DNA from: Thermovirgaceae bacterium
GTDB taxonomy: Bacteria; Synergistota; Synergistia; Synergistales; Thermovirgaceae
Direction: 5' to 3'
DNA length: 14,347 nucleotides
Assembly (NCBI GenBank): GCA_046542505.1
Contig: JBKHBH010000050.1
Location: forward strand, 1-14,347
Shown here: positions 723-2,504 of the stretch, piece by piece
Numbering within the stretch: position 1 is the first letter of the stretch
How the letters are laid out: each line of letters begins with the position of its first letter
The notes under the pieces: generated by a model
The model's input: the letters and a program-made list of their open reading frames with translations, nothing else
The model's database searches: none
Told to the model about the DNA's origin: nothing
Position numbers and translations under genes: made by a program

Positions 723-2078
723 TCATGAAATGCCCAAAACACGACTGGCGATTTCAAAGTAGATAATGAGGCCAAGCACGTCCACTGTAGTGGTGATGAA
801 CGGGCCGGAAATCACCGCGGGGTCGATCTTGAAAAATCTTGCGACGATGGGAAGGATGACTCCCGCCAAATTCCCGACGATCACCACCGCGACGAGTGAG
901 AAGGCGACGACCAGGGCCACATCGGACCCCGTATCCAGCATATAGGCCCGCGCGATGGCAAGAACCCCCAGGGGCAGGCCGAGCAAAAATGCCGTTAGAA
1001 TCTCCCGCAAGAACACCGTCTTGAGATTTTTCCACTCGATGTCCCCAAGGGTCATTCCGCGAATGACCAGCGTTGCCGCCTGGTTTCCAACATTGCCCCC
1101 CGTGCCTATGAGAAGAGGGATGAAAAAGGTCAGGGGCACGACGCTCTGGATCAGAAAAGAGTAGGAGCTCAACACAGTGGAGCTGATGGCCTGGGCGGCT
1201 ATACAGATGACCAGCCAGGGCAGCCGCTTGCGCGCCAGGGTCAAAACCCCCGTTTCAAGATAGCGTTCCTCCACAGGCTGGATACCGGCCATCCGTTCGA
1301 AGTCTTCAGTGGCCTCTTCTTCGAGGATGTCCAGCACATCGTCGAAAGTCACGATTCCCACGAGCCGGCTCTCGCTGTCAACCACGGGGAGGGCGTGCAG
1401 GTCATAACGGGACATGATCTGGGCGCATTCCTCCTGGTCCGTTCCCGTCCCGATGGAAACGGGATCCTCGTTCATGAGGGCCGACATCGGAGTTTCAGGC
1501 TGGGCGAGGATGATGTCCTCCAGGTCTACGGTCCCCAACAGGTGCCGCTTGTTGTCCATGACGAAGCAGATATATATGGTTTCCTTGCTCCGAGCCTCGC
1601 GACGGATATGCTGCAAGGCCTCGGAAGCGGTCATATCTTCCTTGAGGTCAATATATTCAGGTGTCATCAGGCGTCCCGCCGATGAGGGCCTGTAGTTCAG
1701 GAGACTGTTGGCAATGGTCCGTTCCTCCGACGACAGGTGCTGGAGGATTTTTTTCACCGTCTTGGCCGGTAATTCATCCAAAAGGGCCGTCCGGTCGTCA
1801 TCTGACATGTCCTCGATGATCTCGGCGGCCTCCCTGTCGGTAAAGCTGTTCAAAAGCTCCTCCCGCTCCGGGCCTTCCATGTGTTCGAAAACCTCAATGG
1901 CAAGATCCTTGGGGAGGAGCCTGAAAAGCAGCACCCGCTGTACTTGCGAAATATCCACCAAAAGATCGCTGATATCCGCCGGCTCAAGTGTCGAAAGGAG
2001 CTCCTTGACAGCCTGGAACTTGCGTTCGGCCATAAGGGACTCGACAACTTTGTAGAGCAGTTCGAGACGTTCGATCAT
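723..2078 (-). CDS. mgtE: Magnesium transporter MgtE
   Basis: MgtE N-domain, CBS pair (AGRLMTPEY, LPVVDSESRLVGIVTFDD), GTGGNVG motif and TM helices with conserved TTTVD. ATG 2078 is preferred over GTG 2102 because SD GGGGGTG lies 6 nt upstream. Confidence 0.96.
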   Translation of the reverse strand: MIERLELLYKVVESLMAERKFQAVKELLSTLEPADISDLLVDISQVQRVLLFRLLPKDLAIEVFEHMEGPEREELLNSFTDREAAEIIEDMSDDDRTALLDELPAKTVKKILQHLSSEERTIANSLLNYRPSSAGRLMTPEYIDLKEDMTASEALQHIRREARSKETIYICFVMDNKRHLLGTVDLEDIILAQPETPMSALMNEDPVSIGTGTDQEECAQIMSRYDLHALPVVDSESRLVGIVTFDDVLDILEEEATEDFERMAGIQPVEERYLETGVLTLARKRLPWLVICIAAQAISSTVLSSYSFLIQSVVPLTFFIPLLIGTGGNVGNQAATLVIRGMTLGDIEWKNLKTVFLREILTAFLLGLPLGVLAIARAYMLDTGSDVALVVAFSLVAVVIVGNLAGVILPIVARFFKIDPAVISGPFITTTVDVLGLIIYFEIASRVLGIS

Positions 2079-2385
2079 CGCCGTCACCCCCGTTTCCGTC
2101 ACAAGGCGACATACACGACACCCATGTGCGGCGGAATGTCAGGGTTTCTTCGCCGCAAGGCGTCCTGAGCTGTCTTGTGCCTGTTGAAAAAGCTTCAAAC
2201 TCTGGAGGGGGGGAACCTGCGATGGAAGGGAGTTTCGGGAAACCGAAAGGGCAAAAAAACTGGAAGGCCCTACTCGTCCATTTTCGCGTTTCCCCCCTCG
2301 AAACGGGACGTATCCCTCTTCAAATCCTGTCGGGGACATAAACTGTCGTCCATTTTCATCTCCTTCGCTTCCTCTGATACATTTC
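2079..2385 (-). ncRNA. Long structured 5' leader of mgtE (candidate cis-regulatory RNA, family unknown)
   Basis: Lies between a promoter (2392-2421) and the mgtE start. Nested complementary segments: 2205-2216/2288-2299, 2222-2226/2277-2281, 2230-2233/2272-2275, 2234-2238/2243-2247, 2248-2252/2267-2271. Confidence 0.55.
2270..2353 (-). CDS. Candidate leader peptide (uORF) MDDSLCPRQDLKRDTSRFEGGNAKMDE, 27 aa
   Basis: SD AAGGAG (2360-2365) 6 nt before ATG 2353, with an alternative in-frame ATG at 2359. TAG at 2270-2272. No homology evidence. Confidence 0.4.
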   Translation of the reverse strand: MDDSLCPRQDLKRDTSRFEGGNAKMDE

Positions 2386-2391
2386 AAACCC

Positions 2392-2421
2392 ATCCTAGCC
2401 TAAAGGCTTGTTAATGGTCAA
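2392..2421 (-). promoter_or_regulatory. sigma70-type promoter firing into the mgtE leader
   Basis: TTGACC (2416-2421), 18-nt spacer, TAGGAT (2392-2397), just downstream of the rpsI terminator. Confidence 0.65.
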
Positions 2422-2454: not shown

Positions 2455-2482
2455 AAAAAAGGGGACGCATCCCTGCGCCCCC
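2455..2482 (-). terminator. Intrinsic terminator of rplM-rpsI
   Basis: GGGGGCGCA-GGGA-TGCGTCCCC 9-bp stem (one G.U, GNRA loop) followed by T6. Confidence 0.9.
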
Positions 2483-2504
2483 TGTATCGTACGGACTGTC
2501 CCGA

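Follow-up and report, generated by a model that had tools for sequence, protein, structure and literature searches.

Leader control of magnesium transport genes and the mgtE leader of a Thermovirgaceae bacterium

Textbook control of bacterial Mg2+ uptake takes two forms, the M-box riboswitch of Firmicutes mgtE, which usually acts through an intrinsic terminator, and, for enterobacterial mgtA, the leader peptide MgtL. Leader-peptide control is known for mgtA, mgtCBR and mgtB, and a Rho step acts at mgtA. Here we analysed a stretch of 14,347 nucleotides (nt), the window, from a Thermovirgaceae bacterium of the phylum Synergistota (assembly GCA_046542505.1, contig JBKHBH010000050.1), in which a long stem at positions 2205-2299 stands upstream of an mgtE gene. 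A previous reading of the letters and open reading frames (ORFs) of this DNA, hereafter the sequence-only reading, described the stem as a perfect three-way junction, judged that it is not an M-box, and proposed an unrecognised Mg2+-responsive cis-acting RNA of unsettled strand. The reading that we favour, with moderate confidence, is that the stem represents one state of a leader-peptide switch of mgtE that is coupled to translation and resembles those of MgtL and MgtQ. The amount of the mgtE magnesium channel made by these Synergistota bacteria is probably governed by ribosomes and not by a classic riboswitch.

The MgtL peptide is encoded ahead of mgtA in Salmonella and E. coli. According to one report (10.1101/2021.02.02.429294), the peptide starts MEPDPT, translation abortion at its N-terminal EPDP rises at low Mg2+ and mgtA goes up, the enhanced abortion falls within the first six residues, and an N-terminal position and small residues favour the effect. 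The locus studied here resembles mgtL-mgtA in that the leader of a Mg2+ importer gene contains a short ORF with its own ribosome-binding site, and computation predicts that this ORF overlaps mutually exclusive RNA structures, comparable to the overlapping alternative stem-loops of mgtL-mgtA. Also alike are the C-rich tract past the ORF and the presence of a rho gene and, in part, the acidic, proline-containing N-terminus as the conserved part of the peptide. The systems differ in the gene concerned (the channel gene mgtE here, a P-type ATPase there) and in phylum, and the leader RNA here has no detectable similarity to a known leader in Rfam. The N-termini MDDSLCP (window) and M-D/E-S-G-x-x-P-L (family) are less dense in D, E and P than MEPDPT. 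The output here is probably masking of the ribosome-binding site.

A second comparison is with mgtQ, located between mgtC and mgtB in Salmonella. In its published description (PMC8092293), acidic codons of MgtQ destabilise the ribosome, and alternative stem-loops mask or free the ribosome-binding site of mgtB. The leader studied here likewise combines an upstream ORF (uORF) that has acidic codons with predicted stem-loops that would gate a transporter's ribosome-binding site. mgtQ has 8 codons and is intergenic, whereas the uORF here has 27 codons and lies 190 nt upstream. Translation of mgtQ favours that of the gene behind it, whereas the sign predicted for the window's family is the opposite.

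The M-box (ykoK, RF00380) is likewise a long structured leader of the Mg2+ transport gene mgtE, with presumably a similar purpose. The leader of the window differs in its predicted leader ORF and in the absence of a covariance match and of an intrinsic terminator, minus-strand positions 2392 to 2078 having shown no terminator-like site. A search of both strands of the window against Rfam, which the sequence-only reading had suggested, gave no match at gathering score, and no known RNA family accounts for the region. At E<=10, nothing relevant was found within 2000-2560, where three weak matches fall on the rpsI terminator. With a covariance-model score of at least 44 bits as the test of membership, RF00380 was detected in none of the 19 genomes of the window's family (0/19), and the positive controls B. 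subtilis and L. lactis were detected. The statement that the element is not an M-box is correct, given these two results. Nor was there any Rfam match in 20 Synergistota leaders, among them all 16 in which no uORF was identified, or in 20 Clostridia-type mgtE loci (0/20, M-box included, at gathering score; L041-L097, 125 kb). From the latter result, the mgtE orthologues closest to those of Synergistota seem generally not to be M-box controlled.

The upstream ORF and the helix that overlaps it

The stem sits mid-way along the mgtE leader, which belongs to the minus strand and measures about 300 nt. The view that it is part of a structured, cis-acting leader of mgtE is supported; the downstream gene carries MgtE_N, CBS and MgtE domains. 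In proposing a pure Mg2+-sensing RNA, however, the sequence-only reading overlooked the uORF (Table 1), which holds the 5' arm of the stem and whose stop codon falls within the junction. The uORF N-terminus and the outer helix are the conserved parts of this leader.

Of 268 Synergistota genomes, 165 were found to carry mgtE, and we collected the upstream regions of 72 orthologues with at least 51% identity and an intact N-terminus, which together with the window make 73 leaders. Tandem second copies, N-terminally truncated fragments, one gene lacking upstream sequence and three genus members were left out. The uORF was identified in 57 of the 73 leaders, 46 of them by a strict pattern (10-32 codons opening with ATG or GTG behind a Shine-Dalgarno-like site, with a peptide that begins M-D/E or as one of two observed variants) and 11 more in a single genus, in which the Shine-Dalgarno sequence lies farther upstream. 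As a control, a looser pattern with no Shine-Dalgarno requirement was present on 51/73 forward strands vs 14/73 reverse strands.

Aligned at the start, 58 distinct sequences give the consensus M-[D/E]-[S/E/Q]-G-x-x-P-L; the peptide of the window begins M-D-D-S-L-C-P. Third codon positions are the least informative (0.38, 0.28 and 0.27 bits in codons 2-4, vs 0.5-1.9 bits at first and second positions), and synonymous variation is evident (GAA/GAT/GAC, AGC/AGT, GGN, CCN, TTA/TTG). Also conserved in the 58 distinct leaders are purine-rich positions -12 to -6. An upstream in-frame ATG runs straight into TAA in 5 of 60 leaders, and the second ATG is therefore taken as the start of the uORF. In 56 of 60 leaders the second residue is acidic, a property for which the patterns themselves selected. 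Only about the first 8 residues are conserved; the peptides are anywhere from 14 to 28 residues long and end in unrelated C-termini. The three complete genus leaders keep the frame and the position of the stop, and the middle has diverged (27, 27 and 28 codons). Sequence comparison thus indicates that the N-terminus of the uORF is constrained as a peptide and its 3' part as RNA, the latter because it contains the G-rich 5' arm. Profile and pattern searches identified no second copy of the uORF in its own genome (E 0.097 for this locus, E 0.3 for the next).

A DNA search of 40 relatives gave matches in other genera over a 30-nt stretch only, and these were rejected as the start of acpP, which by chance is nearly identical to the uORF start over 30 nt. 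In acpP, a Shine-Dalgarno sequence precedes MKMEE... (AAGGAGATGAAAATGGA[A/C]GA; misleading matches in L007-L010, L013, L015 and L016).

All of the helices previously described can be read off the sequence. The outer 12-bp helix (2205-2216/2288-2299) includes a plus-strand G.U pair at 2213/2291 that is an A.C mismatch on the minus strand. It encloses GCG/CGC (2219-2221/2285-2287), ATGGA/TCCAT (2222-2226/2277-2281) and GAGT/ACTC (2230-2233/2272-2275), followed by two hairpins (2234-2247 and 2248-2271) with zero unpaired junction bases. When the 116-nt segment 2195-2310 is folded alone, this structure is the minimum-energy fold on either strand (minus, -41.5 kcal/mol, z -2.08, 9/200 shuffles equally good; plus, -48.9 kcal/mol, z -2.92, 3/200 shuffles equally good). 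Folding of the segment is better than chance, though not extreme. An additional 9-bp helix (2315-2323/2184-2192) can be drawn, as the sequence-only reading had done, but in the fold of the full leader 2315-2321 pairs with 2300-2306 instead. The element is single-copy in the 2.14-Mb assembly (142 contigs, 93.5% complete), and a repeat or mobile-element reading was rejected for this reason.

The family of the window comprises 14 leaders from 5 genera, and in all 14 the outer helix is kept, with compensatory changes. The sequence-only reading had made its proposal depend on structural conservation of this kind in relatives. In every family leader the uORF stop has an arm on either side: the core of the G-rich arm (G[A/U]GGG...) begins 19-30 nt ahead of it, and the C-rich counterpart (CCC[U/A]C) follows at a distance of about 40-80 nt. 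The congeners L100 and L101 have the same 13-nt 5' arm but read it in frame 1 and frame 2, respectively, so the arm is constrained as RNA. CCUUCC/CCUCCC boxes like the pyrimidine box of the window recur in 10 family leaders of other genera, counted by eye rather than by script.

With G[AU]GGG and CCC[UA]C as anchors, base pairs were counted in a register free of gaps, because MAFFT misaligned the two arms in three attempts. In this register 78.6% of cells are standard pairs, compared with 49-54% when the 3' side is slid by 1-3 nt and 68 +/- 3% when the arms are dealt among the sequences; 0 of 500 such deals gave as high a figure. Both partners have changed at position 2, which belongs to the anchor, and at the unanchored positions 6, 8, 9 and 10, with position 6 occupied by G-C in six leaders, U-A in five and U.G in one. 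Measured against dinucleotide shuffles, the energy of the arm duplex has a mean z of -2.4 (p<=0.015 in 8/14). Cognate and non-cognate arms were not discriminated by duplex energy, a test that is uninformative because G-runs and C-runs pair promiscuously.

In a consensus of four sequences from the genus, the outer helix and an AGGG/CCCU hairpin that starts at the uORF stop codon survive, and the TTCGG-GAAA-CCGAA hairpin is absent. The three-way junction is without covariation support in this consensus, as its covariation term is +0.62. The perfect three-way junction is therefore present in the sequence of the window, but it is the outer helix, and not the junction, that is conserved.

Two further features of these leaders were observed. 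On the minus strand of the window the string AAAATGGACGA is present twice, at 2346-2356 (the uORF start) and at 2274-2284 (near the uORF end). UCCAU of the pyrimidine box (2222-2226) could pair with either copy, and a similar second copy ([AT]ATGGAC[GA]A) is retained in 2/3 genus relatives. In leaders of families f3 and f6, a GC-rich hairpin (CCCGGCG-NNN-GCCGGG) recurs past the uORF (e.g., L107, L113, L121, L128 and L156), with variants such as CCCGACG/CGTCGGG; in some of these leaders a U-run then follows within a longer stem.

Alternative pairing and the proposed control of mgtE

In most genera the arms of the outer helix resemble a Shine-Dalgarno sequence and its antisense (GAGGGUGAU(C) in the 5' arm, (G)AUCACCCUC in the 3' arm). 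When the full leader of about 310 nt is folded, 2205-2224 pairs with 2076-2096 and covers the mgtE Shine-Dalgarno sequence and AUG, the 3' arm (2205-2216) lying opposite 2083-2091 and 2219-2224 opposite the start region 2076-2081; the 5' arm pairs with 2226-2243. This minimum-energy fold (-109.0 kcal/mol) does not contain the stem. Forcing the stem gives -108.3 kcal/mol, a cost of 0.7, and its pairs have equilibrium probabilities of about 0.1. Because the competing folds differ by only 0.7 kcal/mol, the 3' arm is predicted to have two mutually exclusive, near-equal partners, one of them inside the uORF. In a model of the leader L098, masking codons 1-8 switches the RNA from a masked Shine-Dalgarno sequence to formation of the stem.

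In the mechanism that we propose, transcription would begin behind the rpsI terminator, near 2385, and the leader would then encode the 27-codon uORF. The C-rich 3' arm and the pyrimidine box would choose between the 5' arm and the Shine-Dalgarno sequence and start codon of mgtE. If the uORF is read through to its stop within the junction, the 5' arm would be unavailable, and the C-rich arm would then mask the mgtE initiation region or offer Rho loading, with mgtE off. If ribosomes stall or drop off in the first acidic, small and proline codons, the free 5' arm would capture the 3' arm, with mgtE on. In MgtL and MgtQ of Salmonella and E. coli, early loss of ribosomes of this kind is stronger at low Mg2+. 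That ribosomes read the uORF and that control has this sign are inferences, as is Mg2+ as the signal, given that the regulated gene is mgtE and that MgtL and MgtQ provide a precedent. Rho loading is a possible alternative output, since the tract past the uORF is C-rich and G-poor and the genome carries a rho gene; over the 80 nt that follow the uORF stop, 47 of 60 leaders have more C than G.

Several results weigh against this proposal. The uORF was not identified in 16 of the 73 leaders, its patterns were composed after examples had been seen, and the peptide of the window, which has two Asp and one Pro, is further from MgtL than the family consensus is. For the outer helix, positions 1-5 pair by construction because the register is anchored there, covariation events are few because the 14 leaders span only 5 genera, and MAFFT with RNAalifold recovered only 5 pairs from the 14 leaders. 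Support is weak for a duplex between the 3' arm and the Shine-Dalgarno sequence of mgtE (mean z -1.35, p<=0.04 in 5/14), and a blind anti-Shine-Dalgarno search with RNAduplex in 57 leaders was noisy, with many z-scores near 0. The modelled shift is small: the mean probability that the Shine-Dalgarno sequence is unpaired is 0.34 across the family with a ribosome at the uORF start vs 0.29 with one at the stop, and in the window the site is masked in all three modelled ribosome states. Leaders outside the family model to the opposite sign, with the site opened by a stop-bound ribosome (f10, f5 and part of f3), so that one mechanism for all leaders is not established.

This opposite sign is what is expected if translation of the uORF is required for that of mgtE, the ribosome melting a structure that masks mgtE. 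In the short-leader families an anti-Shine-Dalgarno helix begins 0-10 nt past the uORF stop, and masking the stop raises modelled access (L142, 0.03 -> 0.37; L150, 0.02 -> 0.23; L148, 0.09 -> 0.32), with a rise in the non-family mean from 0.28 to 0.33. Positive coupling has a parallel in mgtQ, whose translation promotes that of mgtB (PMC8092293). In the family of the window, however, the uORF stop and mgtE are 159-193 nt apart in 13 of the 14 leaders and 89 nt apart in L103, and covering the uORF end lowers modelled access both in the window (0.28 -> 0.15) and in the family mean; we regard such coupling as unlikely, if worth keeping in view. Direct binding of Mg2+ or another ligand by the leader, with the uORF incidental or secondary, could explain why a long helix is conserved and two folds of nearly equal energy exist, and mgtE is a classic M-box riboswitch target in Firmicutes, with the references from B. 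subtilis and L. lactis detected by our search. On the other side, the interior of the RNA beyond the outer helix is unconserved even within the genus, which speaks against a ligand pocket, and what the 58 distinct leaders conserve best is a coding N-terminus that wobbles at third positions. These observations, and the lack of a match in Rfam, leave a true riboswitch improbable.

The peptide itself could instead act in trans, for example as a modulator of MgtE, with the stem affecting mRNA stability or relative translation, and conservation of the N-terminus at the peptide level in two mgtE clades would fit this. We consider it very unlikely for a peptide whose conservation stops some 8 residues in, whose lengths and C-termini vary as described above, whose 3' coding part is RNA-constrained with a frame that differs between congeners, and for which the genome profile search found no second copy. 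Hardly credible, finally, is an independent small or antisense RNA on the plus strand, the strand that the GAAA tetraloop and the G.U pair favoured in the sequence-only reading, which placed the only visible promoter on the minus strand. The plus-strand fold of the segment is indeed the stabler one, with its GAAA loop and a G.U pair in place of the A.C mismatch. Such evidence is misleading, because the antisense folds are stabler in 10 of the 14 family members and fold energy is thus uninformative on strand. No plus-strand promoter-like site was found within 1900-2700, neither strand matches Rfam, and the Shine-Dalgarno sequence, like the conserved promoter and the codon-periodic ORF, is on the minus strand. 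Conservation of the promoter and of the coding uORF settles the strand as minus.

A second, distant mgtE clade of the phylum, about 38-40% identical to the mgtE of the window, has a related uORF (MDAGPS...) in 5 of the 20 upstream regions collected (3 by pattern and 2 by eye). The leader-peptide motif is conserved across two mgtE clades. Our results suggest that a third combination, a leader peptide with mgtE, is the rule across Synergistota, a phylum without the M-box. A literature search, with most subscription journals outside its coverage, found no published leader-peptide control of mgtE or in Synergistota. Tentatively, and with distinctly less confidence than in the switch itself, acidic, small-residue and proline-containing leader peptides (M-D/E-S-G-x-x-P-L and M-D-A-G-P-S) may represent a widespread and ancient form of ribosome-based Mg2+ sensing, used for mgtE in Synergistota through an anti-Shine-Dalgarno switch that replaces the M-box, with MgtL as one member of a phylum-spanning class. 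If so, intrinsic ribosome destabilisation would no longer be an enterobacterial curiosity but a sensing principle of general reach, here in a compact system of about 300 nt with one uORF, one helix and one ribosome-binding site. For those who search for RNA motifs the locus is also a caution, as a striking stem may be one state of a translation-coupled switch whose coding part is overlooked.

Gene neighbourhood and related leaders

Table 1. Features of the mgtE leader and its surroundings in the window.
Feature	Position	Strand	Basis
rplM	3361-2933	minus	Ribosomal_L13 domain
rpsI	2900-2508	minus	Ribosomal_S9 domain
Intrinsic-terminator-like hairpin and T-run, closing the rplM-rpsI unit	2460..2483	minus	10-bp stem, 7 GC pairs, TTTTTAT tail
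Promoter-like site TTGACC-18-TAGGAT ahead of the mgtE leader	2392..2421	minus	sole promoter-like site within 1900-2700
uORF Shine-Dalgarno AAGGAG, 6 nt ahead of the ATG at 2353	2360..2365	minus	sequence and conservation
uORF, 27 codons and TAG (2272-2270), MDDSLCPRQDLKRDTSRFEGGNAKMDE	2270..2353	minus	homologues, 3-nt periodicity
Whole stem and junction	2205..2299	minus	minimum-energy fold of 2195-2310
5' arm of stem, GAGGGGGGAAAC, within uORF codons E-G-G-N	2288..2299	minus	sequence, fold
Pyrimidine box CUCCCUUCCAUCGC	2219..2232	minus	pairs with AUGGA/GAGU inside the stem
3' arm of stem, GTTCCCCCCCTC, also candidate anti-Shine-Dalgarno	2205..2216	minus	sequence, fold
C-rich, G-poor 80 nt past the uORF stop, candidate Rho loading site	2190..2269	minus	36% C, 17% G
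mgtE Shine-Dalgarno GGGGGTGA, 5 nt ahead of the ATG	2084..2091	minus	sequence
mgtE coding sequence, 451 aa and stop	723..2078	minus	MgtE_N, two CBS and MgtE domains

The nearest mgtE loci are those of Thermovirgaceae and Thermovirga metagenome-assembled genomes. Both promoter hexamers, TTGACC and TAGGAT, are retained in all five genus sequences (the window and L003-L006). The start of mgtE at 2078 is backed by full-length alignment with relatives from residue 1, and GGGGGTG serves as its Shine-Dalgarno sequence in 13 of the 14 family leaders, L103 having GGGAGG. In a public RNA run, 5% of words were present and contigs span just 2548-2700, in rpsI.

Several genomes of one Synergistota genus encode two tandem mgtE genes, with the uORF leader ahead of the first copy (G092:C664, G095:C46, G093:C223, G094:C24, G100:C7 and G099:C5). 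In the second mgtE clade the uORF reads M-D-A-G-P-S/E..., is preceded by GAAGTGAG and lies 120-140 nt upstream (L170, L177, L181, L182 and L188). Comparable uORFs were also identified in 7 of 66 mgtE loci from outside Synergistota (L044, L092, L074, L076, L082, L086 and L090). Acidic or proline-containing starts upstream of mgtE in Firmicutes-type genomes include MDSEPLPK..., MDPLPSS... and MEADAHPEP..., and L092 has the AAGGAGATGAAG context in common.

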